This document shows positions 2,263 through 57,535 of a stretch of 64,000 nucleotides of DNA, one piece after another. The notes under the pieces were generated by a model. That model did not search any database. It was given only the letters and a program-made list of their open reading frames with translations, and had not been told where the DNA came from. The stretch is from IMG/VR virus record IMGVR_UViG_3300046495_000014, positions 21,602 to 85,601 of that record; one strand, written 5' to 3'. Positions within the stretch are counted from its first letter, which is position 1, and each line of letters opens with the position of its first letter. Position numbers and translations under genes: made by a program. The DNA is from a virus (Duplodnaviria > Caudoviricetes).

Positions 2263-2284
2263 GACGCCGGATCGATCCGGCGTC
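2263..2284. repeat. 22-bp perfect palindrome GACGCCGGATCGATCCGGCGTC, copy 1
   Basis: Exact copy between divergent -10 boxes. Confidence 0.95.
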
Positions 2285-2289
2285 CGCGC

Positions 2290-2295
2290 CATAGT
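2290..2295 (+). promoter_or_regulatory. CGCGC-CATAGT -10-like box
   Basis: 6 nt before ATG 2302. Confidence 0.6.
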
Positions 2296-2301
2296 GCAGG
2301 C

Positions 2302-2490
2302 ATGCGAATCCTCGACGCGTACATCCAAACCACGTCCGACGACCATCTGGAAGACTTAGCCGAACCGCGATTGACCGTCACGATAGCCGTCGACGACCTA
2401 GCCGACGGCTTACGGCTACTTCAAGACATCGCCATGATGGTCAACCCGCCCGACGATCTAGACCGTCCAGAATCGCCCGAGTCGGAATGA
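2302..2490 (+). CDS. Small acidic hypothetical protein, antisense to tail operon
   Basis: 62 aa; conserved box 6 nt upstream; overlaps 3' end of LysM gene. Confidence 0.6.
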   Translation: MRILDAYIQTTSDDHLEDLAEPRLTVTIAVDDLADGLRLLQDIAMMVNPPDDLDRPESPESE

Positions 2491-3658
2491 CCAACGGCTT
2501 ACCGACTGGCGGGGAAATCGAATACGCCGCCAGTCCGTTCGCCTTCGCCAGCGCGCCCGCTACCGTATCGGTCTGGTAAAACTTCATCGCGATCTTCCCC
2601 AGCGTATCGCCGGCTCGCGGTAGGTAAACGGTGATGAGATCGCCAGTCTCCATCCGATTCCCCGACGCCGCCGACTGCACCCCGGCGCTACGCCTGCGAT
2701 TGGCGGCCTTCGCCAAGTCGGCGTTTACCGATACCATCCAGTTCGCAGAATCCTGGGCCTTGCTGTAATAGGCCGCCGACCGCGTAAGCATCGACACGCG
2801 CGATCGGGTCTGCGTTTCCTCGAGAGGCGTTCGACTGATGTCGTCCAAGAAGTTGTTCGCGGTCGAGACCGCGTAGTTCGCGACGTCCAGCGCCCTACCT
2901 ACCAGCGACACGGGTATGTCCCGGATCGTCAGTACCAGCGATCCTAGGTCGTGCATACGGCTCGTAACGCTATCCGCAGCCCGCGCGAAACTGTCGAACA
3001 TTTCGAACGGCCCCTTCGCGAACTGTTCTAGCGCCCCTAACGTAAGCCGAGTGGGCGACGCCTTCAGCGCCGTATTATTCGCCGCCGTCACGCCGTCCTG
3101 CGACGCGATCGCCGCCTGGATCTTCGCGATCAGATCGAACGATACGTCTTGCAGTTTCGCCGGTTCGGAATCGCCCTTCCCGATCCACACGAACGTAGCC
3201 GACCACGCGATGTCGTCCAGATTATCCGGGCGGGCTTCGAACGTCCCTAGCCGCCCGTCCCGCACCACCTTCAGCTTCCGTTGAGGCACGGCCCCCTTCG
3301 TCGACGGCGCCGATTCGTTCGACCACGTGACGCGCAGTAGCTGGCCGCCATCGCGGATCTTTTCGAAGATCGTCCAAAGGTCGTGGGCATACCCGACGTT
3401 GTGCGGCCCGTCTTCGTCGGTCCAGGTGCAGGGGTTCCGCAGTAGCGTGACCGTCCGCCAGCTACCTTGCCAGTCCGACGGCGCTACCTTCGTGGCCAGC
3501 ACCTGTTGCGACGCTCGTCGGTTCCCCGGGTAGAACTGCGTGGGCAACGTCGTTTCGCCGCCGTAGCCGGCGGGCCGTAGCGGTAGGCCCGACCCGCGCA
3601 GTTCTAACTTACGTTTCTTGCCGCTCAGTTCCTCGATCGTCAGATTGCTGGTGGCCAC
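2441..3658 (-). CDS. LysM-containing baseplate/tail tube initiator protein
   Basis: C-terminal RAGDTLGKIAMKFY...LAKANGL LysM-like motif; downstream of tape measure. Confidence 0.65.
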   Translation of the reverse strand: MATSNLTIEELSGKKRKLELRGSGLPLRPAGYGGETTLPTQFYPGNRRASQQVLATKVAPSDWQGSWRTVTLLRNPCTWTDEDGPHNVGYAHDLWTIFEKIRDGGQLLRVTWSNESAPSTKGAVPQRKLKVVRDGRLGTFEARPDNLDDIAWSATFVWIGKGDSEPAKLQDVSFDLIAKIQAAIASQDGVTAANNTALKASPTRLTLGALEQFAKGPFEMFDSFARAADSVTSRMHDLGSLVLTIRDIPVSLVGRALDVANYAVSTANNFLDDISRTPLEETQTRSRVSMLTRSAAYYSKAQDSANWMVSVNADLAKAANRRRSAGVQSAASGNRMETGDLITVYLPRAGDTLGKIAMKFYQTDTVAGALAKANGLAAYSISPPVGKPLVIPTRAILDGLDRRAG

Positions 3659-3664
3659 CCCAGC

Positions 3665-3670
3665 AATCTA
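3665..3670 (-). promoter_or_regulatory. Extended -10 box (TGA-TAGATT)
   Basis: 6 nt before GTG 3658. Confidence 0.6.
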
Positions 3671-3675
3671 TCACG

Positions 3676-4389: not shown

Positions 4390-4431
4390 AATCGACCTCG
4401 GGAAAACACTAGCACAGACCGGCCGCCGCTA

Positions 4432-6429: not shown

Positions 6430-6435
6430 ACACGG

Positions 6436-6457
6436 GACGCCGGATCGATCCGGCGTC
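6436..6457. repeat. 22-bp palindrome copy 2 (extends to 28 bp, 6433-6460)
   Basis: Exact copy with self-complementary flanks CGG/CCG. Confidence 0.95.
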
Positions 6458-6464
6458 CCGCTAC

Positions 6465-6857
6465 CTACCCGCCCGCGTCGAAGTCGCCGAATCCCCAGGG
6501 CGACATCGCTGGAACGGCGGGGGTCGGTTCGTTTCCGCCGTTCTCGTTTCGAATCAGTTCGGCCAACGCCGCTTCCCAGAGTTGGGCTTCTTCGTGCGTT
6601 AGCTCCCACGCCCAGTCGACAGACTGCCTAAGGTACCGGACGATCGCCGTCACGCGCGCGTACAGTTCCGTCAACGCCTGATTCGGATCCGGGTACATGA
6701 ACAAGAACGCCGCGTCGAATCCGACGTCGGCCCCCGTCCCTCCCGCGTACTTCCACGCCAGGCGGTGCAGTCGTTTCGCTACCCAATCGGGGTCTAGCGT
6801 CCAGCCGTTCGCGTCGACGGTCAGCCGCCCGCTAGACGTACTGCGACGCAGTTCTCG
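6465..6857 (-). CDS. Tail assembly chaperone, frameshift-extended part (gpT-like)
   Basis: Open -1 frame overlapping the 3' end of the chaperone gene, entered at TTTTTTC. Confidence 0.7.
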   Translation of the reverse strand, partial: RELRRSTSSGRLTVDANGWTLDPDWVAKRLHRLAWKYAGGTGADVGFDAAFLFMYPDPNQALTELYARVTAIVRYLRQSVDWAWELTHEEAQLWEAALAELIRNENGGNEPTPAVPAMSPWGFGDFDAGG

Positions 6858-7357
6858 AAAAAATCGGCCATCTCTTCCTGCTTCGCGACGTGCAGTTGGA
6901 CGAACAGTCGATCCAGAATCGAACGGCACTTCGGTCCGATCGCGTCCCACCAGATGTCGATGTTGCCGACGCCGGGTTCGCCGGTCCAGTCCGCCACGGC
7001 CCCGTCGACGGCGCGGATCATCTGTTTCGCCATCTGCTCGGCCATCTTGTTCGGGTCTTTATCGGACCGCATGATGGCTAGCTTTTGGTCGCCTAGGTTA
7101 TTCGACCAGATGATCGCCTGCCGTTCGCCCTTCGCCGGCGTGTCCGTCATCGTCGGGCGGAATCGGAGGTACATCACCTGCTTGTTGCGCGGTATCTTCA
7201 GACCCGGCGGTACCAGCACCCAGTCGGGGATCCCGCCGTCCGTCGCGTCGGGTAAGTCCACGCGTGGGGTTATCGGGATCGGAGTCTCGACGGCTTCCGC
7301 CATCGCGTTGGGGGTTACGTTCGGTGGTGGTGGGTCGGTATCGTTTCGATCGATCAT
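6821..7357 (-). CDS. Tail assembly chaperone (gpG-like)
   Basis: 178 aa between tube and tape measure; GAGGA SD; TGG-TAAGGT box at 7379-7384. Confidence 0.75.
   Translation of the reverse strand: MIDRNDTDPPPPNVTPNAMAEAVETPIPITPRVDLPDATDGGIPDWVLVPPGLKIPRNKQVMYLRFRPTMTDTPAKGERQAIIWSNNLGDQKLAIMRSDKDPNKMAEQMAKQMIRAVDGAVADWTGEPGVGNIDIWWDAIGPKCRSILDRLFVQLHVAKQEEMADFFENCVAVRLAGG
6857..6863 (-). other. -1 programmed ribosomal frameshift slippery site T TTT TTC
   Basis: X XXY YYZ heptamer in frame with gpG; -1 frame is the 6465 ORF. Confidence 0.75.
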
Positions 7358-11491: not shown

Positions 11492-11764
11492 TCAGGCGGT
11501 AACCCACCGACCGTCCCGGATGAATCCGTGGTGGCCGCACGCGCGACAAAGTACCGACGGTAACAGCGTTATCGGTTCAGCGGTTGCCAGCTGCCAGCCC
11601 ATTCCCGCAGGGCAGTGCTCACCTTCGACTGCGATCCATCCGGCATGCGCGCCCTTAGGACAGTCGTGCCAATAGGCGACGCCGGCCAATTCCCCATCGA
11701 TATATCGCTGTTCAATCGTAACCCCGGACCCGATGTCGATGATTTCGCGTTTGGTACAGTCCAC
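11492..11764 (-). CDS. Small Cys/His protein resembling DUF6527
   Basis: ITLLPSVLCRACGHHGFIRDGRWV; AGGAG SD. Confidence 0.55.
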   Translation of the reverse strand: MDCTKREIIDIGSGVTIEQRYIDGELAGVAYWHDCPKGAHAGWIAVEGEHCPAGMGWQLATAEPITLLPSVLCRACGHHGFIRDGRWVTA

Positions 11765-11783: not shown

Positions 11784-11805
11784 GACGCCGGATCGATCCG
11801 GCGTC
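11784..11805. repeat. 22-bp palindrome copy 3
   Basis: Exact; overlaps TGA stop of 11804..12445. Confidence 0.95.
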
Positions 11806-12445
11806 AGTCCGGAACGTCCAACACGTCGTCGGCGCCCGTCGTCGGGTTACCTAACCGGTCGGTGTCGGACGACATCGGTTCGAGTACGACCGCCCACTGC
11901 GCGCCTTCTTCGTCCCGCCAGGGACTAGCGCCCAGCTTGTACCGACGGCGCATCGGCGGGTCGTCGCCGCGCCCGTCTTCCACGATCTCGTAAAAGAACA
12001 CGGTCGGATCCTGCGGCCCTAAGTAGGTCGCGATCGCCGCCGTCGACGGGCCAGGATCGCTCGTGCGCGCCTCGCACGCCGACTGGTCCGGGTAGTCGAC
12101 GGGAATTCGCACCCCGCGCAAATGGTCTTCCGTGAACCAGTACGCGCTGATCTCGTCGACGCGCACCGAGCCGTCGGCAACGATACCGATCGACAACGGA
12201 CGTCTAGTCGTCGACGTCAGATCGGCCACCCGCGGGGTCGGCAACAGTTCGATTCGGGCCCGGATGACGTCCTGGCCAGCCCCCGCCGTTTCCCCGGTCG
12301 ATTCGACCCACACCAAAAACACCCGGCGCGACCGCGTTCCGAACTTCGTATACAACTGTCGGACCCGATCTAATCGTCCCGTCAGTCGCTGCGCCAGCGT
12401 TCCCCTCGCTGCCGCAGGCCCTGGAAGCGGTCGCACGCGGGGCAC
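11804..12445 (-). CDS. Head closure/neck-like hypothetical protein
   Basis: 213 aa in neck cluster; synteny. Confidence 0.45.
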   Translation of the reverse strand: MPRVRPLPGPAAARGTLAQRLTGRLDRVRQLYTKFGTRSRRVFLVWVESTGETAGAGQDVIRARIELLPTPRVADLTSTTRRPLSIGIVADGSVRVDEISAYWFTEDHLRGVRIPVDYPDQSACEARTSDPGPSTAAIATYLGPQDPTVFFYEIVEDGRGDDPPMRRRYKLGASPWRDEEGAQWAVVLEPMSSDTDRLGNPTTGADDVLDVPD

Positions 12446-15746: not shown

Positions 15747-15768
15747 GACGCCGGATCGATCCGGCGTC
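15747..15768. repeat. 22-bp palindrome copy 4
   Basis: Exact; 3 nt after stop of 15772 gene. Confidence 0.95.
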
Positions 15769-15771
15769 AGC

Positions 15772-17466
15772 CTACGGTCGTTGACTGACGTACACCCCTT
15801 GTCCGAGCGGCGTTATGTACCAATCGTATGTTGAAACGTCAGCCGTAGATGTACTCAACGCGCGAAACCCTGTCGTGGTTCGATTCGCAGTGGGAGCCGA
15901 AACCGATGCCGTAGGTACACCACCAGCGTCATCGCGTTCGGTAAGCATTAGTCGTTGTCGAGTCCAATCCACGAACGGTACGGCAACGTTCACATATCCG
16001 GGTGCGGTTCCGCCGATCGTTAGGGTTCCAGACAACGCACCGTCCGAATAAAGCGTGGCTGCCGCCCAGGTCAACGACGAATACGTCGTGCTGGACGACT
16101 GAGCTTGAACCGCGGTCGTTCCGAGTACGTTCAAAATCCCCGTCGGGGTTACCTTCACCAGCTGGGTGTTGGCGCGTAGTCGAACGCCGATCAAGTTATC
16201 CCGCCCCGAAATACTCCCGTCGACCGTAACAGACGCCCCGTCTTCTAATTCCAACGCTACGTCCGGAGCGTCGAAGAACTGCGAATCCATAAAGACGATG
16301 CTTCCGGATTCGCAGCGCAACCGCACGCCCTGCACAATTGAATTCGAAATATACGACGGAGAATGCGCCCCGATCCCAACGTACGATAGGGAATTGGCAG
16401 CCGCTACGGATCCGACCAACAGACTGTTCAGTACGGAACAACCGGCGGGTAACAACTCGTGCATCGGTCTTACGTACGATCCGCAATAGAACGGATTCCC
16501 GTTAGTGATAGCGTCGCCGCCGTACATGTCGCATGTGCAGCTGCACCCCCACGTGTAGGTACCACCAGATCCACCGTATAACCCCAGGCCGCCGGTAATC
16601 GATAACAATTGGATCGTAGTATAAGACCCACCGTTCGCGTAAAGGTACGCCCCGGCGTTCACAATATTCAGATGAACGAACGTCGGAAGAACAGGGATGA
16701 TCCAATTGTCGTTTACCGACCACGTACCACCCGATGTGTAAATATCGATCGGTACCGACACCCGCGCTACGTTGTTCCCCAGCCCGTGGGGATTAGCTTT
16801 GGCGATAACAGCGACTGACCCCGTAGTCGCGTTTAGCATTACTTTTCCCACGTAGGGGGTAAGGTCAGCCACACCCGTAACGGTAACGTGAGTTCCAACG
16901 GGGGTCGTTCCGGTATGCGAAACCGGTGAAAATGCCGATACTTTACCAGCTGCCAAATTGGCGTATCCCTCGCCCACGATGTCGAATTCGATTCCGCTAG
17001 CCACGAGCGCGTACGTCAGGAACAACGACCCGTAACTTCCAGGCCTAACGTGAATGACGACTGTGTGGTCCCATTGGATCACATCGAATCCGAGGCGGTG
17101 GTTCAACTCTTCCGCCGTCCGCAATGCGGATCCCAAACTTGTCCCGGTATTGCTATCGTTTCCGTTTGATGAATCGAGATACCAGTCGGTTACTGCCCAA
17201 GCGTTACTATATCGGCTGTACTCACTTTGGACGCTAGCGCGCGGTTGCGCACAACAACCCGGCTTCGTCTATCGTACCGCCGCGCAATCTCAGAATCGTG
17301 ATCATCGACGCTGCCGCGGCTAACGCGGGGTTGGGCGTCGGTTCGAGTATCGCCCCGCCGACAGTAGTTTCGCGATCGGATCGACCAGCGAATCAACAAT
17401 CGCGCCCGGCCACAATCGCGATCCACCCGCTATTTGAACCGAATTGATTAGGTAGTAGGTGGTCAT
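15772..17466 (-). pseudogene. Fibre/beta-helix-like virion protein with three -1 frameshifts in its 5' part (or local sequence errors)
   Basis: ATG 17466 MTTYYLINS is paralogous to 23397; the frame continues WYLDSSNGNDSNTG upstream of the track's TTG 17136; three single-base insertions restore a 565-aa ORF. Confidence 0.6.
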
Positions 17467-17521
17467 CGGGTGGGGGAAGCTCCTTCCCTCCACCCTACCA
17501 AACCTAGTCCCCCGGCACTAC
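17341..17521 (-). repeat. Duplicated promoter plus N-terminal coding cassette, copy A
   Basis: 33-bp identical promoter block (17489-17521) and about 125 bp of near-identical coding sequence shared with 23271-23445. Confidence 0.9.
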
Positions 17522-17525
17522 GCGC

Positions 17526-17891
17526 CTAGCCAACGTCCGCGAACGACAGCGGATCCGGGACTACTTCGAACATGTAGTTGTCCTTTTGCGACGTCGCCCA
17601 GGCCGCCCCGTCCACAGTCAACGTTCCGCGCCCGCCTAGTTCGCAGTGCCCGATCTGGTTCGCCTGCAAGATGTAGGTGAAGACGTACACCCCGATGCTG
17701 TTCCGGAGCAACGCTTTGCCTAGTTCAGTCGGCGCCCCGTACACCGTCGCGTCTTCCCGCCCGTCTTCGCTTCGGATCGACGCGATAAACGGAACGGGAT
17801 CGAATAGCTCCATCGCGCCCGATACGGAATTCCGGCGTCGGCAAAAGAACGTGTATTGCAGCGTTGACCCCACCTTGTACTGGTCGCTCAT
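17526..17891 (-). CDS. Small beta-rich structural protein (start reassigned to MSDQYK)
   Basis: ATG overlaps TGA of fibre gene; 121 aa. Confidence 0.65.
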   Translation of the reverse strand: MSDQYKVGSTLQYTFFCRRRNSVSGAMELFDPVPFIASIRSEDGREDATVYGAPTELGKALLRNSIGVYVFTYILQANQIGHCELGGRGTLTVDGAAWATSQKDNYMFEVVPDPLSFADVG

Positions 17892-20800
17892 CTGGTCAAT
17901 CTCCCGGTAATCGATACCCACACCGACGGTCGTCCTTCGATCTCGACTAGTTCCGCCGGTTCGCCGACGATCGCCACGAACTGTATCGGGGATCCGGTAA
18001 TCGACCAAGGGATCGGAACCGGATTCGTCGTCGTATGGATAACGACCGGGGAACTAACGCTTCGGAATACCGTCGCCGACGTCGCTTGAATAACCCACGA
18101 CAGCGCCGCCGCTACGGGTCCTACCGCTCGCCCCCGACTTACCGGGGCCGCCGTAGCGAACGACGTCGACGAAAGGACGACGGCCGTCGTCGCCCGCTGT
18201 CGACCCGAGGCTACGGGATTGATCGCCGCTCCCGCGCCCGTCGGCGACGTAGTTCGAACGCGTCCGGTCGCCGACGGTAGAATTCCGACGCCAGCCACGG
18301 GAGAAGTCGACGCGCGGAGTAGAACGATCGGAACCGCGGACCACGACAAGAATCCCTGTTCGATCCCCGCCCAGCGACTACGGCTAGCGCTCGTCGGGGA
18401 ACTAGTAGCCCCGCCCGTTTCGACGCCCGTCGCCCGCTGTCGAACCGTAGGGGCGACCGACCACGCTACGGATACGCCGAACCCGCCGACGCTGCGCGCC
18501 TGAACGACAGACACCATAGTCGCGATCGACGTTCCCGCAGTTCCGACCGCCCCGACCGATCGTTGTCGACCCGCTGAACTAACGACTACAGACACGACGG
18601 CGCCCGCGGACGTTATGATCCCGCCCGTCGCTCGCTGAATCTGAACAGGCCACCACGCGAATACCGTCATCGTGGCCGTCGACGAAACCGCGGGAGCCGT
18701 CTTCGCCGAACTTAGTCCGGTCGATACCGCGATGGATTCAGAAGGCATGATGCCAGCGCGGTTAGCCGATCCGATCGTCGGCGTCATCGCGTTCGACTGC
18801 GTACCCGCGGCCCGCTGAGTCGCAGCCCCGACTACAGTCGCTCCGATCGATCCTGTCGTAGCCCCGACGGCCCGAACGGTCGTCGCCGAACCGACGACGC
18901 ACGCCGCGACCGATCCGGCTGTCGTCGTCGGCGAACCTACGGATCTAACTTCCGACGCCGACGACATCGACGCCGTAACCGTTCCGGAGACTTGCCCGAC
19001 TACGGGACCGCGAACGCCCGACCCCACCGCAGTAGTAACCGCGACCGTTTGCGTCCCAACCGCCCGCTGCGTCGCCGCGGGATTCACTACGCAGGATGCG
19101 ACGGCTCCCGCGATCGTCACGGGAGATCCGACCGACAGCGCGCGAACGCTACTCGTCGGCGTCATCGATTCGGACAGCCCCGGCGCCGTAACTGATCGAC
19201 CTACGTTCGATCCGACCGCCGAACACTGAACGAATCCCACAGTCGGTCCTGGCGTTCGCGACTTATTCGCCGGGGCGATCGCCGCTGCAGCCGCGCCGCC
19301 TGCCTGTCCGTTTGCGAGTAGTCGAACGCTGGACGCTAACGCCGTCGATCCTCCGACGACCGATGCCCCGACAGCCCGTTGTGCCGCGGTAGGGCTAGCC
19401 ACGCAGGACGCGACCGATCCGGCAACTACGCCCGGGGTAGGTACGTTGACCAACCTCGCGGTTCCCGCCTGCGCCGCGCCCAATGCGATCGCCATCTGAC
19501 TGACGTATCGCGTCGTCAAGCCCGGGGTAGTCGCGCCCAATACCAGTGTCGGCGTCGCGCCGGTCGCCCGCAGAATACTACTCGGCGTGGGCGTCGCCTG
19601 AACGGTCAACGCTGTTGGGCCCGATATGCCGGACCGACCAACTGGGGATTCTCCAAACGTCAGTCCGCCCGCGAGAGGCCCCAAAAACCTAGATCGCGCA
19701 GCTGATGACTGTGCGCTAGTTCCGCTTAGCCCTGTCGGTCCGACGCTGCGCGAAACCGTAGCCGGATTCACGACGGTCGCCGCTACCGATCCGGAGGCAA
19801 CCGAAATCGCCGATATTACCGACCACCGCAAGACCGGCGTCAGTGTGCAGACCGTCGCCGGATTCGTGTCGTCGACGCCCACAGCGGCGTACGCTGAGCC
19901 AGACGCCAGCGCCACCCACTTTCCGCCGCCCGATTTGATAACGGAATATGTCCCGCTGAACGGCAGCGTGACGTTGCACCAGTTTACACCGTCGACCGTT
20001 TGCGCCGCGACGCTACCGGTTCCGGGCACGACGATAATCTTCGTGGCGCTAGCCGCGATGGCTCTCGCCCCGACGCCGGTTAGCGGCCACGTTTGGTACT
20101 CCCAAGCGGTACCGTTTTGAGACGTCGCATAGCCAGCGTAGTCAGTCTCGGAACACGGAGACACCCAAGTTCCGCCTAGGTTCGCGATTCCGACCCACGT
20201 CTGGTGACCGATCGCTACGCCATCGTCGCCCCAGCCGAGCTCGGCCCACGTCGCGCCGCCGTCGTCTGAAACTTGTTCGAACGGGCCCGTCCCTTCGATT
20301 ACCCACCGCGATCCGACTTCGATCGTATCTTGCCAATGATGACCCTCATTGAGCGGGACCGAATTCCAGTTGATCCCGTCGGTCGTGTTGTAACTATCGG
20401 CGTCCACAAATGCGGCCAAAATAAATTTGCCGCTGGTTGGACCGAACGCGAATGTGTACCAAGTCGCAGCGACTGGCAGCGTGCGCGCCGTCCAGTTGAT
20501 GCCATTTGAACTCGTTAGGTACTGGTCTTGCGCGCCGCCCGTACTGCCGGCAACAATTATCCACAGCGGATTCCCGCCCACCAGACCGTACGCGCACAGG
20601 CACCAGGGCTGCGATGTAATGTTCGTAGAGTTGCAGGACAGCCACGTTTCGCCGCCGTCCGTCGAGTACGCAGGGATCCCGAAAGTTTGAACCGCCACCC
20701 ACATACCAGCGCCGTCGGTCGCCAACGCCTGCCAGTCGCCGCTCGCCGGTAACGCTTTTGACGCGAACGTTACAGCTGGTCCCGAATACGTCTTCGACGT

Positions 20801-21694: not shown

Positions 21695-21697
21695 AAG

Positions 21698-22153
21698 CTA
21701 CTCCTGCCAGTTTACGTAACAGGTCATTGATCCGAGAGTCGCGCCCGACGCCACAGCGTTAGCGATACATAATCCGGACGACACAGCGACGATCAACGGG
21801 TCCGGAAACGTCCAGATAATGCCCGAGCCCGCCGTCACGGGTAGGCCCATACCGCGCAGGAACGGACCGGTAGTCGTGAACGTTGGAGCCGCTGACCACA
21901 CAGTATCAAGAGTAACGGTAGAAGCCCCATCCGCTGGATCTAACGCCGTTCCGGCTATGGACGTCGTTGACGTGCCCAAGCCAGTTGACCTGGCCAGAAC
22001 GAACTGTGGCGCAGTCGTCGGAGCTACCGTGATGAATATGCCCACCTCTGTGATGCGCGCACGTTCTCCCGCCGCAGTCTTCAGCTGCCACATCACGGTG
22101 TTGGCGGTATTGACACCAGCTTTCGCGACACTCACCGACGCGTACGCGCCCAT
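21698..22153 (-). CDS. Small structural protein
   Basis: 151 aa, beta-rich, coupled to neighbours. Confidence 0.65.
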   Translation of the reverse strand: MGAYASVSVAKAGVNTANTVMWQLKTAAGERARITEVGIFITVAPTTAPQFVLARSTGLGTSTTSIAGTALDPADGASTVTLDTVWSAAPTFTTTGPFLRGMGLPVTAGSGIIWTFPDPLIVAVSSGLCIANAVASGATLGSMTCYVNWQE

Positions 22154-26350: not shown

Positions 26351-26372
26351 GACGCCGGATCGATCCGGCGTC
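26351..26372. repeat. 22-bp palindrome copy 5
   Basis: Exact; between divergent promoters. Confidence 0.95.
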
Positions 26373-31491: not shown

Positions 31492-31743
31492 CTACAGTCG
31501 ACGCCCGCGTCTATCCGCCAGGCTACCGACTAGCGGTGGGTCGTCGACGACGCCGGATCGATCCGGCGTCGCTTCGTCGCGTAACAGTCCCGCCGCCACC
31601 AGATCGGCGCGCGTCGGCGGGAGATCGATCGTCGCCTGGAACCCGTCCGATTCTAAGTCGGACTTGGGCGGAGTCGACTCGCTGTCGACCCGCGTCACCC
31701 CGACTCGCGCCCATGCCTTCAGTGCCCCGAAACTCCAAGTCAT
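31492..31743 (-). CDS. Hypothetical protein containing the palindrome in frame (TPDRSGV)
   Basis: 83 aa, ATGA-coupled to 31740 gene. Confidence 0.45.
   Translation of the reverse strand: MTWSFGALKAWARVGVTRVDSESTPPKSDLESDGFQATIDLPPTRADLVAAGLLRDEATPDRSGVVDDPPLVGSLADRRGRRL
31549..31570. repeat. 22-bp palindrome copy 6
   Basis: Exact; inside ORF 31492..31743. Confidence 0.95.
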
Positions 31744-32640: not shown

Positions 32641-32871
32641 CTACCGTACCACAGAGGGACGGTACATCGGATGCGTCGCCGATACGTTCGCCAGTTCCAG
32701 CACCCGCGCCTCGACCAACGCAATGCAACACGCCTCGACGGCTTCCGGCGGGAGGGATAACCGGGCGGCAAGGGTATCGACGCCGATGCCCTTGCCGTAG
32801 TCCGCCCAGTACGCGCGCGTGACGTTGTAGATCCGCAGCCGGTTGGTAGGGGTAGCCCGCATGATTCTCAC
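32641..32871 (-). CDS. Small winged-HTH-like protein (start reassigned)
   Basis: IGVDTLAARLSLPPEAVEACCIALVEARVL; CATAGT box 32881-32886 and AGGAG. Confidence 0.5.
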   Translation of the reverse strand: MRIMRATPTNRLRIYNVTRAYWADYGKGIGVDTLAARLSLPPEAVEACCIALVEARVLELANVSATHPMYRPSVVR

Positions 32872-32900
32872 GGTACTCCTACTATGGCGCGGAACGTTCG

Positions 32901-34223: not shown

Positions 34224-34245
34224 GACGCCGGATCGATCCGGCGTC
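34224..34245. repeat. 22-bp palindrome copy 7
   Basis: Exact; between divergent promoters. Confidence 0.95.
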
Positions 34246-34251: not shown

Positions 34252-34315
34252 TGTTGTGGACTAGTGGAGCACGGTGCGCCATTAGTAGGGAGTCACGGGG
34301 AAGGAATCAGCCAGC
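34252..34315 (+). promoter_or_regulatory. Class II promoter-operator-RBS cassette, copy a
   Basis: TGGACT-17 nt-CATTAG; spacer holds TGGAGCACGGTGCGCCA; GGGGAAGGAATC RBS. Confidence 0.75.
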
Positions 34316-36964: not shown

Positions 36965-37079
36965 CGCGAACCTCCTGATTCGGTTCGACGCCGGATCGAT
37001 CCGGCGTCGGTTCTTCTTCGTCTGCGTTCGGGATCGCCAACAGCGCGTCGACGATCGCCCCGTAATCGACTTCAGTCAT
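36948..37079 (-). CDS. 43-aa acidic ORF containing the palindrome in frame
   Basis: Hand-translated MTEVDYGAIV...EPTPDRSGVEP; CGCGC-CATCGT box 8 nt upstream. Confidence 0.4.
   Translation of the reverse strand: MTEVDYGAIVDALLAIPNADEEEPTPDRSGVEPNQEVRDDADA
36987..37008. repeat. 22-bp palindrome copy 8
   Basis: Exact. Confidence 0.95.
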
Positions 37080-37403: not shown

Positions 37404-37469
37404 GTGGGGCTGATTCCTTTCCCGTCTGCCAGTCTGTTATGGCGCACGGTGCGCCATTAGTCCACAACA
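37404..37469 (-). promoter_or_regulatory. Class II promoter-operator-RBS cassette, copy b
   Basis: TGGACT-17 nt-CATAAC; TGGCGCACCGTGCGCCA; GGAAAGGAATC. Confidence 0.75.
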
Positions 37470-39077: not shown

Positions 39078-39099
39078 GACGCCGGATCGATCCGGCGTC
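39078..39099. repeat. 22-bp palindrome copy 9
   Basis: Exact; overlaps terminase TGA; 5 nt from CATAGT box. Confidence 0.95.
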
Positions 39100-41791: not shown

Positions 41792-41810
41792 CGTCCCCCG
41801 ACTATGGCGC

Positions 41811-41832
41811 GACGCCGGATCGATCCGGCGTC
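41811..41832. repeat. 22-bp palindrome copy 10 (extends to 30 bp, 41807-41836)
   Basis: Exact with GCGC/GCGC flanks. Confidence 0.95.
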
Positions 41833-41842
41833 GCGCGTTCGT

Positions 41843-48064: not shown

Positions 48065-48086
48065 GACGCCGGATCGATCCGGCGTC
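48065..48086. repeat. 22-bp palindrome copy 11
   Basis: Exact; 5 nt from CATAGT box 48054-48059. Confidence 0.95.
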
Positions 48087-48447: not shown

Positions 48448-48511
48448 GGTGGTTGATTCCTTCCCCGTGACTCCCTAGTTATGGCGCACCGTGCGCCAGT
48501 AGTCCACAACA
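48448..48511 (-). promoter_or_regulatory. Class II promoter-operator-RBS cassette, copy c
   Basis: TGGACT-17 nt-CATAAC; TGGCGCACGGTGCGCCA; GGGGAAGGAATC. Confidence 0.75.
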
Positions 48512-48517: not shown

Positions 48518-48539
48518 AGCGCCGGATCGATCCGGCGTC
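48518..48539. repeat. 22-bp palindrome variant (2 mismatches); partial CGGATCGATCCG at 48552-48563
   Basis: Core CGCCGGATCGATCCGGCG intact. Confidence 0.85.
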
Positions 48540-48541: not shown

Positions 48542-48877
48542 TCAGTACCAGCGGATCGATCCGGTTCCAGCCCGGTCGCATAGCTCTAGTAGTCGCGCCG
48601 TCGTTTCCCGTAGGTAACCCGGACGCCGGGCGAACTGAATCCGCCGCCCCTCGACCGTCGCGGCCGATCCCGCGTCGTCGTTCCGGGGTATCGGCCAGAG
48701 TCGGCGACGGCACTTCGCGGCGACTTCGCCGACGGGTAGTTCGCCGACTAATACGTCGAACGTCGGCAAGCCGATCCAGGTCATTAGATCTGCAGCGTTG
48801 ACGTTCGCAAGACTAACGAACGTCAACGGATCGTCATAGTCGACCTGGATCGCGGACGCTGAAAAAGTGACGGACAT
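48542..48877 (-). CDS. Hypothetical protein (start reassigned to MSVTF)
   Basis: TAATG-coupled. Confidence 0.6.
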   Translation of the reverse strand: MSVTFSASAIQVDYDDPLTFVSLANVNAADLMTWIGLPTFDVLVGELPVGEVAAKCRRRLWPIPRNDDAGSAATVEGRRIQFARRPGYLRETTARLLELCDRAGTGSIRWY

Positions 48878-49086
48878 TAGCGGGCCGAATCCATATTGGG
48901 GGTTAGGTCTTCGACCGAAATGCAGTGACAGATCGGGCAGCAAGCGACGATGATCGCGTCAACAAGCGGGTTTTTATTATGGGCCGATCCCAGTTCAGCC
49001 CCCAGCGTAACGGCCTTACACTTCAGGCATTCGAACCGGTGGTTCGGATCCAGGATTTCGGGGACTACTGCGTTCGGGTGCGCCAT
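48877..49086 (-). CDS. Small zinc-binding-like protein
   Basis: CLKC and CPIC motifs; ATG lies in last tandem repeat. Confidence 0.6.
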   Translation of the reverse strand: MAHPNAVVPEILDPNHRFECLKCKAVTLGAELGSAHNKNPLVDAIIVACCPICHCISVEDLTPNMDSAR

Positions 49087-49140
49087 GTGTCAACAATGGT
49101 GCGCCATGTGTCAACAATGGTGCGCCATGTGTCAACAATG
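49078..49140. repeat. 3 x 21-bp tandem repeat CATTGTTGACACATGGCGCAC (minus strand)
   Basis: Three exact units. Confidence 0.95.
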
Positions 49141-49163
49141 GCGCACCATGCCCCACTGGTCCA
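49135..49163 (-). promoter_or_regulatory. Class II promoter variant, copy e
   Basis: TGGACC-17 nt-CATTGT; degenerate operator TGGGGCATGGTGCGCCA. Confidence 0.6.
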
Positions 49164-49748: not shown

Positions 49749-50227
49749 TTGGGATCGTCCTCGTATTGTAACGGTTCAGGGATCACACGGATGTCTTGCC
49801 CGCGCGCCAGTAGGTCGAAGAACGCGCGCTTGTCCGGGGCGGATACGTTCGCCAGCGGATCGGCGGGGTCGTACCCCGCTTCCAGTATTCGACGGACCTT
49901 CGGGTTCGCCGCTGCCAGCGACCAGTCTTCCAACTGTAGTTCCGCCAGCACTTCCGGGGCCGACGTCGGCCCGGTCCACCCGCGTTCCTGCCATTCGTAG
50001 CCGCGAACGAACCCGTCCCGGTACGCGGCTTCCAGTAGGTAACGGCAGTATCCGGCGACGACTTCCCGGGGCGCGTCGGGGTTCAGCGCCAGCCACAGTT
50101 GCAGTTCTTCCGTCACCCGCCGGGGTACTTCCGGGCCTTCGTAGTAACGATCGAACAGTCGATCGACTAACCGCTTCAACGCGCGCATTAGCCGCGACGG
50201 CCGGACCCGCTTCGGTTTAGTCGCCAT
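49745..50227 (-). CDS. Hypothetical protein
   Basis: 160 aa. Confidence 0.7.
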   Translation of the reverse strand: MATKPKRVRPSRLMRALKRLVDRLFDRYYEGPEVPRRVTEELQLWLALNPDAPREVVAGYCRYLLEAAYRDGFVRGYEWQERGWTGPTSAPEVLAELQLEDWSLAAANPKVRRILEAGYDPADPLANVSAPDKRAFFDLLARGQDIRVIPEPLQYEDDPK

Positions 50228-52691
50228 CGGTTCCCCCGTCGACGTACTGCGTCAGATCGTCGGGTACGCAGTTCGAGATGTCGCCGCAGGATTCGACGGC
50301 CTTCTTCATATCGCCCTTGAGGAACACGAGTACCGTCTGGTGCGTCCGGCATAGTTTGCGCCCAGCGATGAAGTGCTTGGCCGCGCGTAGGGGTACGCTG
50401 TTCAGCGACGTCACGAGGATCGCTTCGTTGTAATACGACAACCCAGCGTCCGCGAACGCCTGGATCGTACCGGGAACGAATCCGCGGTACGCCCCCGACT
50501 TCGATCGAGCGTCCCGAACTTCGCCGATCACCCAGACCGCGAACCGGTTGTTCGCCAGTCGGGCGCACGACTTCGCGATGATGTCCCGATAGACAGCCCA
50601 AAACGCTTCCGCCCCCATCACGCTGATGTCGCGCGGATCGTCCGAGTAAGTCTCGAGATCCATATACGGGGGGCAACTGAAGATCAGATCGACGTTGTTC
50701 GGGCCGTTATGCGGGTCGGCTAAGTACGTCGACGAATCGGCGGCTACCCACTCCACACCGCCCTGGTCCGACCGGAACCGATGTCCGATCTGGTTCGCTT
50801 GGTACTGGTTCGCTTCGACCTGTTCGGGTCGTAGATCGATCCCGCAGTACCGAAGGCCCAGCCGCTGCGCGACCAGTCCGCGGACGCTCCCGCCCGCGAA
50901 CGGATCCAGCACGGCCGCACCGACGTGCCCGAACCACCGATAAGCCAGTTCGGCCAGTACCGGATCGAATATGCTCAACGTCGTCTGAATCTCGCTGGTG
51001 TCCAGCGGCTGGCCTAGCGCGTCCCCTTGAGTCACCATCCCAGCGGCCCCCACCCGAACCCGGTTCCCGTCGCCGTCCACGCGTCGCGCCGAAGGTAGGA
51101 TGCCCTTCGGCGGCTTCGGCGGCCGGGTCTTCGTCCCCGACTCCGGAACGAACGTCGCCGTATTCTCACGCCCCAAGTACGACTTCAGACCTAGATCGAT
51201 CCACGCCTTCTTCCGATCCTTCCAGTACCCTTGGCGCGCGTCCAGCACCGTGAAGGGGGGGACGGTAAACCGTTCGGCTAGCGTCGTCGTCGCGCGCTCC
51301 ACGTTCGCGTCCGTATCCGGAGCGCTGCCGCCCAGTAGTCGCGACAACTCCGACTGGTCCCACCCAAGTTGTAACGCGCGACCGTCGGGCAAATGCTTCA
51401 GTAATCCGGACAACTTCGACTGGTCCCACGTAGCCAGTTCGCTGGCCTTGTTGTCGGCTAGCGCCAGTTCGTTCGCCTGCGTCCGCGTTAGGTCGGCGCG
51501 GATTCGAACAGGCACGCGCCCAGTACGAACGGCTTGGATCGCTCCCGGATGCCACGTCGATCGTTCTTCCTGCCCGGCCGCTGCGTACCGCTTAGCTAGA
51601 ATGAACATGGCCTTCTTGCGGGTATGCCCCGCGATCAGCCGCTCCCGCCCATCCCGATCCGGATCGGGCCACGCCGATAATGGGGCCGCGAATCCGTACA
51701 GCACGATCAGATCGGCGACGACTTCCGCCGCCCCGTCGTTGTCCCTTGGGTTCTCATCCCAGTCGTCCAACTCAGTAAAGAGCCGCCACACGGCGGGCGC
51801 TTCGTCGGGGTCGCGATCGTCCAACGGTACGTACGGCGCCGACTCCACCGCAACTGGCACAGCAACGGATACAGTGCGGGACCCACCGGCGTCAACCGGC
51901 GCCCCATTACCGCGGTGTCCGACTAGCCACAACAAATCCCCAGCCTGTAAGAACGGAACGCACTTCGCTTCGTAGATCGGATCCAGCGCCACCCCGTCGA
52001 CGGCAACCCCGTCGCACGACTGGCTGTACTCCATCGGCGACTTCACGATCGTCAGCACTGACCGCCAATTCATCGGAGCGTATTCGTCCAACCGCTTTAT
52101 CGGATCCGCCCCCACCTGCACGCCCATTACCGTCGCCGGGTGGTTCCGTTCGAGCAACCCAGCGACTACACCAGCCGCCGACATCCCCGACCCGATGGGC
52201 ATCACGATTCGTCGGATCGTATCGGGGATCGACGCCACTTGCCCGGCGGTAGCCGTTACCGCTTCGGGGCACACCATCCCGAACGGGATATAGAATCGGC
52301 CGGGTTCCGCGGCGTACGCCTTCGCCCTAGCTACGATGACCGAATTGTACCCGGGGCGGTGTTGCTGCACCTGCGCCCCTAACGCCTGGGCCGCCGTAAT
52401 CTCAGCGCCTAGTTCCCCGGCTGGAACGTGGACGGTCACGGTCAGTCCGACCGCGTTTCCCAGCGCCGCCACGATGTGACACTGCGGTGAGTGCCGGCTA
52501 CCCGCCGTCACCAGTTCACAAAATCCCAACTCGACCGCCCTGGTTACTAGGTTGTGGCAGGTGCGGACCTTACCGCCGAAGATGCCAGCGACGCTGAACA
52601 AGTCGTCCCGCTTCAACCACCAGTCCCCGCGCCGTTCCACCGGCGTCAATTCGTCTCCATCGTACAATCGCGTGCGTAATTTGCGTGCCAT
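50217..52691 (-). CDS. Fusion: PLP-dependent ACC-deaminase-like enzyme + ParB-like domain + DNA amino-methyltransferase
   Basis: LTPV...LKRDD...GGKVR; WDENPRDN...LIAGHTR; VLDPFAGG and DLIFSCPPY. Confidence 0.85.
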   Translation of the reverse strand: MARKLRTRLYDGDELTPVERRGDWWLKRDDLFSVAGIFGGKVRTCHNLVTRAVELGFCELVTAGSRHSPQCHIVAALGNAVGLTVTVHVPAGELGAEITAAQALGAQVQQHRPGYNSVIVARAKAYAAEPGRFYIPFGMVCPEAVTATAGQVASIPDTIRRIVMPIGSGMSAAGVVAGLLERNHPATVMGVQVGADPIKRLDEYAPMNWRSVLTIVKSPMEYSQSCDGVAVDGVALDPIYEAKCVPFLQAGDLLWLVGHRGNGAPVDAGGSRTVSVAVPVAVESAPYVPLDDRDPDEAPAVWRLFTELDDWDENPRDNDGAAEVVADLIVLYGFAAPLSAWPDPDRDGRERLIAGHTRKKAMFILAKRYAAAGQEERSTWHPGAIQAVRTGRVPVRIRADLTRTQANELALADNKASELATWDQSKLSGLLKHLPDGRALQLGWDQSELSRLLGGSAPDTDANVERATTTLAERFTVPPFTVLDARQGYWKDRKKAWIDLGLKSYLGRENTATFVPESGTKTRPPKPPKGILPSARRVDGDGNRVRVGAAGMVTQGDALGQPLDTSEIQTTLSIFDPVLAELAYRWFGHVGAAVLDPFAGGSVRGLVAQRLGLRYCGIDLRPEQVEANQYQANQIGHRFRSDQGGVEWVAADSSTYLADPHNGPNNVDLIFSCPPYMDLETYSDDPRDISVMGAEAFWAVYRDIIAKSCARLANNRFAVWVIGEVRDARSKSGAYRGFVPGTIQAFADAGLSYYNEAILVTSLNSVPLRAAKHFIAGRKLCRTHQTVLVFLKGDMKKAVESCGDISNCVPDDLTQYVDGGTDGD

Positions 52692-53345: not shown

Positions 53346-53560
53346 GACATCCCCGCTACCGCTACGCCGGATCGATCCGACGTCAGTCCGTACATCGACG
53401 CGAAGTACTCGTCGAACGAATCGCAGATCTCGAGTTGTTGGCGAGCCTGTCGCTTATTCGCGAACGGGTCCGTCGACGTCAGACGGGCCGCGTATTCGTT
53501 CCGCTTCCGAAGGTTCTCTTCGTAGTTTTCCAGGACTGTCGTTGTTGCTGGTCTAAACAT
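53342..53560 (-). CDS. Small hypothetical protein (start reassigned to MFRPA)
   Basis: Behind class II cassette; carries palindrome variant in frame. Confidence 0.6.
   Translation of the reverse strand: MFRPATTTVLENYEENLRKRNEYAARLTSTDPFANKRQARQQLEICDSFDEYFASMYGLTSDRSGVAVAGMS
53363..53384. repeat. 22-bp palindrome variant TACGCCGGATCGATCCGACGTC
   Basis: 2 mismatches to consensus. Confidence 0.85.
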
Positions 53561-53625
53561 GGTGGGCTGATTCCTTCCCCGTCTCCCGTATGTTATGGCG
53601 CACGGTGCGCCAGTAGTCCACAACA
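53561..53625 (-). promoter_or_regulatory. Class II promoter-operator-RBS cassette, copy d
   Basis: TGGACT-17 nt-CATAAC; TGGCGCACCGTGCGCCA; GGGGAAGGAATC. Confidence 0.75.
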
Positions 53626-56045: not shown

Positions 56046-56542
56046 AAGCCAGCTCCCGTCATCGCGACGTCCAAGACTTCTTCCAGGTAATTCCGATCTT
56101 CGAGGCTGAGCCCCGCCGACGCTTCCAGCGCCAGATCGCCGACGACTTCGCGCATCGTCGCCGACGTTTCGACGGACGTTCGAACCGCGGCTTCCGTTAG
56201 TATCGCGTCGACCGCCTGCCGCGGCTTGTACCGAACTGGAACGCAGGCAGATCGCAACGCCTGTTCGACGACTTCCCCCGATACCCCAGCGGGCGGGTCT
56301 AACCACACGAACGCGTCTGCGTTCCGCGCCGTTTTCACAATCGTCGCCAACAGCGTTGATATGACGTCCGGGTCCCCGACCTTCCAAAATTCGTCATTCG
56401 GTCCTATTACCCGGATCGGTCGACTCGCGATCGGGAACGCCTTCACCCCGACTGCGATCGGGATCCCGGCGCCGTCGCTCGGTTCCGGCTCGCCGCCGAT
56501 CTTCACCAGCGTCTGAACCTGCGTTCGTCGTACCCGCGTCAT
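56042..56542 (-). CDS. Probable separate C-terminal (capping/Rad50-binding) part of SbcD
   Basis: 166 aa, ATGA-coupled on both sides, between nuclease domain and sbcC. Confidence 0.5.
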   Translation of the reverse strand: MTRVRRTQVQTLVKIGGEPEPSDGAGIPIAVGVKAFPIASRPIRVIGPNDEFWKVGDPDVISTLLATIVKTARNADAFVWLDPPAGVSGEVVEQALRSACVPVRYKPRQAVDAILTEAAVRTSVETSATMREVVGDLALEASAGLSLEDRNYLEEVLDVAMTGAGL

Positions 56543-57303
56543 AGGGCTATCTCCAAAAACCTAGGGGAATTGTTCGCCTCGCCCAGCGTCAGGCGCGCGA
56601 TCGATCCGGGAATGTGGATCGACTTGTAAAGCTGGCCTTCGTGGTAATGCCCGTTGACGATCGGTACGTCGGGCCATGTCTTCCGCAGTCCCTCGATCGG
56701 AAGGAATAGATCCCGCCCCCGCGCGAAGTCATTCGTTTCCGAGCCGACGCTGATGCCTTCCAGCATCAGGTGGCCGACTATCAACGTGGGTTCTTCGTCG
56801 ACGTACCTCGCGATGACGTCCGTCGGTACGTACGCGTGCGACCGCGGAACGTAAGGGAAGCACAAGATCCCGGGTCCCCTGGTTCGACTGGTCGAATACG
56901 AAAACGGAAACACCAGTTTTGGCATCGCGACTACGACCCCGTGCGCCCCCGCGTCCTGCGGCAATCGCGTATCGATCGGCATCAGCGAGTGCGATCCGTA
57001 TCCGTCTTCCAGCACGTCGTGGTTACCAGCGATCCAGATCGACGGGATCCCATGGTATTCCAGCCGCCTAGACAACTGGGCCGCGTACTCGACAGCCCGC
57101 CAGCACCGGGGGGGATCCGGGTTGGTAAGGTCCCCAGCGAAAACGAACAGCGACCGCGAGTCGCCGCGGTCGCTTTCGATAGCGTAATTCGCGACTTGAT
57201 CCGCGGCCCGCGTTACGTCCGCGAACCGTTCTTCCCCCGCGGTTACCGCGTCCAGGTGCCAGTCGGACGAAACGATCGCCCGCACCCCGTACTTACTTAT
57301 CAT
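56539..57303 (-). CDS. sbcD: SbcD/Mre11-like metallophosphoesterase
   Basis: SDWHL, AGDL, AGNHD, GHYH motifs. Confidence 0.85.
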   Translation of the reverse strand: MISKYGVRAIVSSDWHLDAVTAGEERFADVTRAADQVANYAIESDRGDSRSLFVFAGDLTNPDPPRCWRAVEYAAQLSRRLEYHGIPSIWIAGNHDVLEDGYGSHSLMPIDTRLPQDAGAHGVVVAMPKLVFPFSYSTSRTRGPGILCFPYVPRSHAYVPTDVIARYVDEEPTLIVGHLMLEGISVGSETNDFARGRDLFLPIEGLRKTWPDVPIVNGHYHEGQLYKSIHIPGSIARLTLGEANNSPRFLEIAL

Positions 57304-57496
57304 CGACGAACCTCCTACGATGCAGCCCCTCGGCGCGTTCGGTCTTCGTGTATCCGTCTTGGGCGATCCGAACCTCCCGCCCAGCGTGAAGCCAGCACAA
57401 CGATCTGCCGGCTACGGTTTCCGTCGCGGCTTCGGGGCACCGGTGTTTCCGGTGCCCGTACAGTCCGCGCAACTCGATCGATTCGCACTGCGGCAT
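57293..57496 (-). CDS. Small Cys/His protein
   Basis: CATAGT box (57503-57508) 6 nt before ATG. Confidence 0.55.
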   Translation of the reverse strand: MPQCESIELRGLYGHRKHRCPEAATETVAGRSLCWLHAGREVRIAQDGYTKTERAEGLHRRRFVDDK

Positions 57497-57513
57497 GCCC
57501 CTACTATGGCGCG

Positions 57514-57535
57514 GACGCCGGATCGATCCGGCGTC
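57514..57535. repeat. 22-bp palindrome copy 12
   Basis: Exact; overlaps recA TGA; 5 nt from CATAGT box. Confidence 0.95.

Follow-up and report, generated by a model that had tools for sequence, protein, structure and literature searches.

A 22-bp perfect palindrome, GACGCCGGATCGATCCGGCGTC, recurs at gene junctions along a 64,000-nucleotide stretch of phage DNA (the window; positions 21602-85601 of the 85,601-bp virus record IMGVR_UViG_3300046495_000014, which is 93% complete by CheckV). The anatomy of this element, its conservation and the switching of its alleles among related phages were observed directly, and we put the chance that it is a multi-copy operator for one dimeric DNA-binding protein at about even. 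That the palindrome is bound by a protein appears fairly probable, and the idea that the bound protein has a negative effect on transcription is more tentative, at somewhat below an even chance. Coordinates are those of the window unless marked as genome coordinates.

In the window, the palindrome is present in 12 exact copies and in 2 copies with two mismatches, all 14 at the positions that had been read from the sequence alone. The whole record holds 15 exact and 3 near copies, and 100 dinucleotide-preserving shuffles gave 0 matches to the 22-mer. Two further copies are degenerate, one retaining only the core (~48547-48568) and one, outside the window, carrying a 1-nt insertion at its centre.

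Relatives of the phage of the studied record (G000) were found as uncultured phages, A to E, of which C (Ga0055513), D (Ga0069005) and E (Ga0302321) are known as fragments only; phage A stems from sample Ga0184616 and phage B from Ga0075359. Three related viral contigs were reached through the sheath protein, and metagenome contigs searched for the palindrome, allowing any base at positions 5 and 18, yielded 32 loci. By tblastn with the G000 proteins, these loci were seen to include most remaining parts of phages A and B as well as the fragments of C, D and E. Gene order is colinear in these phages and the palindrome stands at the same junctions: before the sigma gene, at the RecA and terminase stops, before the helicase, at the MuF junction, before baseplate or tail genes, and before the capsid block. 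Among the 56 unique copies from at least five related genomes, 49 are identical to the consensus of their own genome, with proteins only 45-85% identical and flanks scrambled. By all indications, every base of the 22-mer is under purifying selection. One copy is found in G000 only, within the open reading frame (ORF) 31492-31743, and it aligns without an indel to ordinary coding sequence of the A and B orthologues; this copy (31549) was therefore made in place by substitutions rather than inserted.

Positions 5 and 18 carry C/G in G000, D and E, T/A in every copy of A and B, and A/T in C. Each genome has one symmetric allele, with the exception of two hybrid sites (G000 53363, and B L050:9298 (C/A)). 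Symmetry at these positions was also seen in 6 of 10 loci that have no detectable homologues, including a G/C form, when one quarter would be expected by chance. The allele is not simply phylogenetic, as the N-terminus of the sigma protein of phage D is nearer to those of A and B than to that of G000. This concerted symmetric switch argues for a trans-acting reader that co-evolves with its sites.

Several features bear on whether the element acts as duplex DNA or as a folded RNA. Complementarity at the six positions outside the 22-mer was at chance level across the same 56 copies (101 vs 99 expected, P=0.43), which gives the element a sharp 22-bp edge. The sequence-only reading had taken extended stems as evidence for a hairpin, cruciform or terminator. 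Stems of 28 bp (6433-6460) and 30 bp (41807-41836) do exist, but with flank pairing at chance level they are not a property of the element and lose their force as such evidence. Variants confined to single copies are one-sided, with 7 of 9 altered pairs broken and the other 2 turned into wobble pairs. Moreover, the dyad symmetry includes the central 4 nt, a feature not required of a hairpin loop, and there are no isolated half-sites.

A hairpin of another kind lies close to one copy, at genome ~1975-2015, where it follows the stop of gene 2019-3539 and precedes the palindrome at 1940, 20 nt away. G000, A and B each have a different stem sequence there, with pairing and the loop GAGAGGAACC kept, and the hairpin is a candidate for a structured RNA in front of the sigma gene. 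This neighbour, whose stem changes, shows how structure-only elements evolve here, and the palindrome is unlike such an element. The distant relative G003 (88.8 kb; L014-L018) has a different, private palindrome with the core GAACCCGGGTTC, present in 20 copies and often in GACG...CGTC-like 22-bp frames. It was used as an analogous family only, since its flanks differ and it shows no leaderless promoter layout. In the G003 palindrome (12-22 bp), the dyad likewise includes the centre; the consensus is symmetric, each arm departs from it independently of the other (57 vs 56 expected, P=0.44), and one asymmetric position would make A-C mismatches in the sense RNA.

Taken together, the sharp edge, the one-sided variants, the central dyad, the contrast with the neighbouring hairpin, the G003 parallel, the lack of half-sites, the in-place origin of the lone copy, the homogeneity of copies and the allele switch call for a sequence-specific trans-acting reader, and a homodimer on duplex DNA fits these tests better than a folded RNA. 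The proposal of a dimeric protein-binding site, made from the sequence alone, thus gains indirect support, namely from invariance with a sharp edge, the central dyad, symmetric allele switching, the lack of covariation between arms and the absence of isolated half-sites.

The placement of the copies was analyzed relative to start codons, stop codons and promoters. A start codon follows 11-23 nt beyond 15 of 20 palindrome sides (median 18.5 nt), and in at least nine cases a -10 hexamer lies 1-11 nt past the palindrome with ATG or GTG ~6 nt later, that is, as a leaderless promoter. These promoters form two classes: class I reads CGCGC, CATAGT, AGGGGC, ATG, and class II has an extended -10 box, TGnTACCYT, followed by 6 nt and the start codon. 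Eight exact window copies (2263, 6436, 26351, 34224, 39078, 41811, 48065 and 57514) have a -10-like hexamer at 4-11 nt, as had been noticed from the sequence, and ATG or GTG lies ~6 nt beyond the hexamer. One repeated promoter cassette is preceded, at equal distance, by the copies at 34224 (plus side) and 48518. Class I promoters are followed by small ORFs that encode proteins conserved in relatives, most with a coding-type GC pattern, so the class I start codons are real. Across the window, promoters of the sigma-70 type with -35 and -10 boxes are scarce, and for the majority of genes transcription apparently begins at leaderless promoters with a -10 box alone.

The reported closeness to stop codons is real for ~10 of the 18 copies in the record, and at 11784, 39078 and 57514 the TGA of the upstream gene overlaps the first two palindrome bases. 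Two copies lie between divergent starts (2263 and 26351), and two are just upstream of complete -35/-10 promoters (15747, and 26351 on its minus side). In phage C, a single copy (L059) has the class I spacer motif GGCGCCAT on both sides, which suggests that it serves two divergent promoters as at 2263 and 26351. Four copies precede genes led by a Shine-Dalgarno (SD) sequence, with no promoter visible (the sigma gene and the starts at 11764, 36964 and 53345); at these copies, the element must be transcribed.

The position of many copies could alternatively mean positive control, in which a dimer replaces the -35 element and recruits RNA polymerase, perhaps with the phage's extracytoplasmic function (ECF)-like sigma, to -10-only leaderless promoters. 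Precedents are the P1 Lpa box, the MerR-type spacer operators and the T4 MotA boxes; in the first two, a dyad adjoins the -10 box of promoters that have no -35 element, at a fixed distance. Lpa is the late-promoter activator of phage P1 (PMC8198154). In line with such a role, at least 8 copies take the -35 place before -10-only promoters, the site centre is at ~-22.5 in A and B, and the gene for the 208-residue sigma, in which only region 2 is detectable, always lies behind a copy. However, the distance is not fixed. The palindrome is -1, 1, 4, 5, 6, 8, 10, 11 or 14 nt from the -10 box, ranging from -1 to +11 nt within single genomes, and some copies are upstream of a complete -35/-10 promoter or before promoterless SD-led genes. 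At orthologous promoters, the site is shifted by 6 bp between G000 and A/B: the class I -10 hexamer starts on the last base of the palindrome in A and B, as is also seen at their RecA stop, and follows a 5-nt spacer in G000. In addition, about half of the class I and most of the class II promoters work without a palindrome. The variable spacing and the copies before SD-led genes or complete promoters argue against a stereospecific activator, and we consider positive control unlikely.

The sigma protein itself is encoded on the minus strand at genome 1302-1928 (L001:863-1489), with a significant match to Sigma70 region 2; region 4 was not detected. Phages A and B keep the protein, and phage D has an orthologous N-terminus whose frame is broken after 62 residues. 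The gene is always SD-led, with a palindrome copy always in front.

The placement would be compatible with a protein that occludes promoters or blocks elongation. In the operator model, a homodimer of one protein, most likely phage-encoded, would read the 22-bp duplex site base by base. At the borders of transcription units, its sites would cover -18 to -39 (G000) or -12 to -33 (A and B) of -10-only leaderless promoters, and elsewhere, ahead of SD-led genes, transcription reading through would run into them. An occupied site should then exclude or stop RNA polymerase, resulting in global repression, roadblock or insulation. Indeed, where the site touches the -10 hexamer, as in A and B, bound protein and RNA polymerase cannot coexist. 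A second palindrome family, of 17 bp (TGGCGCACNGTGCGCCA), lies between a TTGTGG -35 box and the -10 box in a promoter-leader-SD cassette repeated 4-5 times. This is a classic operator position, and the family probably marks the regulon of a separate regulator; that palindromic operators are used elsewhere in the phage adds to the case for the 22-mer, as do published repeats that share its layout (PMC7302621, PMC4351075).

On the transcribed strand, none of the copies is followed by a T-run, and the other perfect-stem hairpins of the genome have none either. A standard terminator scan found 9 sites, compared with 14.1 +/- 3.9 in shuffles, and its sole match at a copy is on the non-coding strand (36985). 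The palindrome thus offers the GC-rich hairpin of an intrinsic terminator with the U-tract absent. The "U-less" terminator that the sequence-only reading had considered is not supported, nor is a canonical one, as there is no T-tract at any copy and several SD-led genes are transcribed through the element. Because canonical terminators are lacking and each leaderless gene has its own start, the sites could also insulate transcription units. The earlier proposal of a combined terminator-promoter insulator would survive as a protein roadblock and fails as far as it relied on a terminator. In a stronger and doubtful version, a phage-encoded dimer would act as a roadblock in place of terminators, so that upstream transcripts end exactly at the stop codon and the leaderless promoter that follows is shielded, and the position 5/18 alleles (C/G, T/A, A/T, perhaps G/C) would define mutually incompatible insulation groups among co-infecting relatives. 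If true, such specificity groups would be a lytic-phage counterpart of immunity groups.

Several observations weigh against an operator. Some are those expected if the palindrome works at the RNA level, as a 9-bp hairpin with a UCGA loop that is read by a sequence-specific RNA-binding or processing factor and either sets or guards mRNA 3' ends or brings about factor-dependent termination where genes end. The predicted hairpin is stable (-16.3 kcal/mol), and copies lie on or just past stop codons, with the TGA overlap kept in three phages as a 3'-end RNA hairpin would show. The degenerate copy outside the window keeps an 8-bp stem with a 5-nt loop, although its central insertion would break the spacing of a dimer. 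The genome is without canonical intrinsic terminators, the element is transcribed before SD-led genes, and the change at positions 5 and 18 keeps Watson-Crick pairing. Against the RNA-level explanation, there is no T-tract at any copy, and mycobacterial RNA polymerase is said, after work by Czyz and colleagues in mBio in 2014, to require a U-tract at intrinsic terminators. Furthermore, the loop is palindromic and invariant, the stem shows no compensation from copy to copy and variants break its pairs, whereas the true covarying hairpin nearby behaves otherwise; copies between divergent promoters lie outside both transcripts. We regard a function in RNA as unlikely, while giving it some weight.

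The remaining points concern regulation and the missing reader. Many class I and class II promoters have no palindrome, making it an accessory element rather than a promoter part. The phage also looks lytic (no integrase or resolvase), which leaves a global repressor without an obvious purpose. No binder was identified among the candidates examined, and no structural relatives of candidate binders were found. The best candidate is a 109-residue helix-turn-helix (HTH) protein whose gene lies behind the copy at genome 3971. Its recognition helix is identical in G000 and B despite their different alleles, and the promoter of its gene in B has no palindrome. This protein gave sub-threshold HTH matches only and no homologues in a 5.8-billion-protein set, and it is not supported as the specificity determinant. 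A ParB-domain binder, suggested from the sequence alone, found no backing: ParB_N (PF02195) had no match at E<=0.1 in six frames of the whole genome, and the ParB-like middle domain ascribed to a methylase fusion was not detected by Pfam. Neither the Cys/His protein (57293-57496), the winged-helix-like protein (32641-32937) nor other candidates had sequence relatives in Pfam, PHROG, NCBIfam or PDB. The sigma protein was considered as the reader too; its four orthologues show only 2 allele-class-specific positions in 62 residues, which is all that phage D offers before its frame break, too little to speak for or against it.

Two of these proteins are of interest in their own right. The product of 57293-57496 is a basic protein of 67-70 residues, without known relatives, that has an invariant C...C...CW[LV]H motif and probably binds zinc, judging from this motif; its gene is always the first behind the palindrome at the RecA stop (orthologues L057:2980-3180 and L034:4686-4892). 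The methylase fusion (50217-52691) joins a pyridoxal phosphate-dependent domain, resembling 1-aminocyclopropane-1-carboxylate deaminase/D-cysteine desulfhydrase, to an N6/N4 DNA methylase, and Pfam shows PALP and N6_N4_Mtase only.

We also considered whether the palindrome is an ordinary feature, that is, a plain intrinsic or bidirectional terminator, a host repetitive extragenic palindromic (REP) element or a GATC-methylation switch. It is a GC-rich intergenic inverted repeat with two GATC sites and a CGTC end like that of CGTC-tagged REPs. However, its sequence is invariant and lacks a T-tract, and the exact 22-mer had a single match in 185,579 species genomes, in a metagenome-assembled genome of 72% GC without phage homologues; the phage's own host is not identified. 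With 0 matches in shuffles and this one chance match, a host REP or coincidence was rejected. No match was found in cultured phages or plasmids, and metagenome matches outside the phage relatives were single copies, among them an exact 22-mer in an 80.8-kb contig (L055) that has neither homologues nor a repeat family. A REP mobilized by a REP-associated tyrosine transposase (RAYT) was rejected too, as there is neither a high chromosomal copy number nor a PF01797 transposase. In CGTC-type REPs, the stem is 8-9 bp long and begins with A/T, the tail is unpaired and only one end carries the tag (PMC3733652). This description does not fit the 22-mer, which has only the terminal tetranucleotide CGTC in common with them. 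Methylation control through GATC, raised by the sequence-only reading, is not supported: the genome has 1022 GATC sites, present at the Markov-expected frequency, not avoided, and only 38 of them in palindromes. GATC is abundant and unbiased in all four genomes compared. The ordinary-feature explanation is largely refuted, and we give it next to no chance.

A further possibility is that the palindrome is a site of DNA transactions, such as a hot spot at which recombination or module shuffling occurs, like the PeSL cassettes in phages of the T4 type, a signal for priming or nicking, or else a miniature mobile element; the identity of copies would then come from spread or gene conversion. Cassette indels do adjoin copies (gene 11492-11764, a Bro-N gene between two copies, the 15772-23037 block and the 62-residue gene at 2302), much as Cluster O repeats flank indels. 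An identical 42-bp block of palindrome and promoter stands at both 39078 and 57514, and RecA-like and SbcCD-like proteins are encoded. On the other hand, most junctions are stable across phages at 45-85% protein identity, the lone lineage-specific copy arose without an indel, and the element is absent from cellular genomes. A mobile element was rejected because that copy was not inserted and neither a Y1 transposase nor an integrase or resolvase is encoded. A DNA-transaction site thus has a slim chance as the primary function, and the indels suggest that the repeats also act, at least incidentally, as recombination points, as proposed for Cluster O.

Global control through many identical sites is known from other systems. 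In the KorB-OB regulon of the IncP plasmid RK2 and with the conserved inverted repeats (CIRs) of Streptomyces phage phiC31, one dimer acts on at least a dozen identical palindromes near many promoters, resulting in global repression; phiC31 is a temperate phage, and in its case the immunity repressor is what binds the CIRs. Stoperators are 13-bp, asymmetric, orientation-dependent sites bound by a monomer in temperate phages with an immunity repressor; some overlap promoters, others block elongation, and site and repressor specificity co-evolve between subclusters. Unlike the KorB/ParB-type regulons, G000 has no ParB_N protein, and its sites are not homologous in sequence to KorB-OB or the CIRs. 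In contrast to stoperators, the site is a perfect 22-bp dyad rather than an asymmetric, oriented 13-mer, and the genome has none of the detectable repressor and integrase genes of a temperate phage. The stoperators of Cluster A mycobacteriophages, of the L5 gp71 type, are many near-identical sites spread genome-wide in short intergenic regions (PMC9283540, PMC6550527).

Closer parallels come from repeats in other actinobacteriophages. The lytic Microbacterium cluster EG has 18-bp inverted repeats, GATCAACCNNGGTTGATC, in 8-10 copies that are typically 14-22 bp upstream of start codons (PMC7302621). These repeats resemble the palindrome in occurring in lytic phages without repressor or integrase, in being kept among relatives despite diverged surroundings and in having GATC in their arms. 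They differ in sequence, the palindrome being 22 bp long with no free central bases, and in reach, as it occurs in all modules of an 85-kb myovirus-like genome rather than at one genome end; it further has an explicit link to -10-only leaderless promoters and three symmetric alleles among relatives. Cluster O mycobacteriophages have 17-bp repeats, TGTTCGGNNNCCGAACA, in >30 copies with invariant arms, for which the authors propose a dimeric regulator (PMC4351075). As here, they are absent from host genomes, their positions are mostly common to relatives and indels are flanked by repeats (PMC4351075). However, they have a variable 3-bp centre, one third of copies are intragenic and few are near promoters, whereas nearly all copies in the present phage are at junctions and most adjoin a -10 box. 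The features of Cluster O/EG-type repeats were found for the palindrome: multiple copies with invariant arms, a start codon at the short distance given above for 15 of 20 sides, junctions common to A-E, and no more than one chance match in the species genomes.

The sequence-only reading was correct that no described phage element matches the sequence. The kind of element is already published, as the 17-bp repeats of Cluster O (PMC4351075), the 18-bp repeats of Cluster EG (PMC7302621) and the stoperators (PMC9283540), so the palindrome is a further example of the multi-copy repeats described in actinobacteriophages, with symmetric specificity alleles as an extra feature. For repeats of the Cluster O/EG type, no binding protein or function has been established so far. 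The present lineage is a natural experiment in this respect, with the same element at the same junctions in at least five genomes and three or four symmetric alleles at one position, and the reader protein could be found by covariation of alleles with residues given more complete relatives. The lineage also provides a compact model of transcription-unit organization, combining leaderless -10-only promoters, an ECF-like sigma, no canonical terminators and two palindromic, putative operator families.

Palindrome copies in the window, with their setting and the corresponding junctions in related phages (phage letter, then locus and position)
Position	Copy	Setting	Junction kept in
2263..2284	exact	between divergent leaderless starts; minus side: TGgTACCTT, 6 nt, GTG 2242 (600-aa gene); plus side: CATAGT, 6 nt, ATG 2302 (62-aa ORF)	A G001:32259; B L046:12990
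6436..6457	exact	7 nt past stop of ORF 6465-6950; then TGtTACCCT, 6 nt, GTG 6417 (661-aa gene)	A G001:28170; B L047:3056
11784..11805	exact	overlaps TGA of gene 11804-12445; then SD AGGAG, GTG 11764; no promoter between	A G001:23118 and B G002:2450, where the copy directly precedes a leaderless extended -10 promoter
15747..15768	exact	3 nt past stop of gene 15772-17136; 5 nt upstream of full promoter TTGCCA, 16 nt, TACGAT, 6 nt, ATG 15707	A G001:18447; B G002:6761; C L037:748
26351..26372	exact	between divergent starts; plus side: CATAGT, 6 nt, ATG 26391 (58 aa); minus side: TTGCGA, 17 nt, TACCGT, 6 nt, ATG 26313 (79 aa, ~75% conserved)	A G001:10088; B G002:14105; E L051:2918
31549..31570	exact	inside conserved ORF 31492-31743, 79 nt upstream of -10 box of portal gene	G000 only
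34224..34245	exact	minus side: TGcTACCCT, 6 nt, ATG 34200 (lipoprotein-like, 175 aa); plus side: repeated promoter cassette with second palindrome family	A G001:1777
36987..37008	exact	then SD AGGAGG, ATG 36964 (251-aa gene, phrog_6452); no promoter visible between	none found at equivalent place in A
39078..39099	exact	overlaps TGA of large terminase gene (39098-40864); then class I block CGCGC, CATAGT, AGGGGC, ATG 39060 (71 aa)	A L061:8398 (1 mismatch); B L050:7514; C L059:286
41811..41832	exact	4 nt before CATAGT, then ATG 41791 (161-aa protein, zinc-ribbon motif-rich)	
48065..48086	exact	5 nt before CATAGT, 7 nt, ATG 48046	A L056:281; B L057:11414
48518..48539	near, 2 one-sided outer-end mismatches	2 nt past stop of gene 48542-48943; upstream of repeated promoter cassette leading to ATG 48447	
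48547..48568	degenerate	only inner core CGGATCGATCCGG retained	
53363..53384	near, hybrid (one arm G000 allele, other A/B allele at positions 5/18)	then SD-like GGGGA, ATG 53345	
57514..57535	exact	overlaps TGA of RecA-like gene (57534-58730); then class I block, ATG 57496 (67-aa basic Cys/His protein, conserved)	A L034:4904; B L057:2947 (stop overlap also kept in both)
34265-34281, 37440-37456, 48482-48498, 53596-53612	second family, TGGCGCACNGTGCGCCA		
49139-49155	second family, degenerate		

The gene content of G000 was examined by Pfam and PHROG scans of the genome. Nearly all genes lie on the minus strand. The structural genes include tail sheath, portal, large terminase and baseplate J, and the replication and other genes encode PolB, a DnaG-like primase, DnaB, a DinG/XPD-type helicase, an intein-bearing helicase and RecA-like and SbcCD-like proteins. 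The genome further encodes two DNA methylases and a lysin that carries a peptidoglycan-binding domain. The 93%-complete genome had no match to an integrase or resolvase (PF00589, PF00239) and none to a Y1 (RAYT) transposase (PF01797) at E<=0.1; no repressor was recognized and no tRNA genes were found in the genome. Given this gene content and the lack of integrase, resolvase and Y1 transposase, G000, an uncultured soil phage, is myovirus-like and probably lytic. DnaB- and PolB-based searches of viral contigs for relatives gave no result, and neither the DNA nor the sheath protein nor the cassette had a cultured relative; PolB is only ~27% identical to haloarchaeal virus PolB. The leaderless -10-only promoters, the ECF-like sigma and the GC content of 62% are consistent with an actinobacterial host and no proof of it.

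Some neighbours of the copies deserve mention. Downstream of the sheath and tube genes and before the 661-residue gene, ORF 6465-6950 shares sequence, in a different frame, with the 3' end of ORF 6821-7357, which looks like a tail-chaperone programmed frameshift pair. ATG 48046 is likely the true start of the DinG/XPD-type helicase. The stretch 58734-59960 encodes a 408-residue protein that is kept in A and B, with only a faint, sub-cut-off match to a TnpB-type zinc ribbon (PF07282, 14 bits). At genome 9102-12002 and 12143-12520, a helicase gene is split by an intein with an HNH endonuclease, and upstream of it a short tandem repeat array of ~24-nt units adjoins a palindrome copy.

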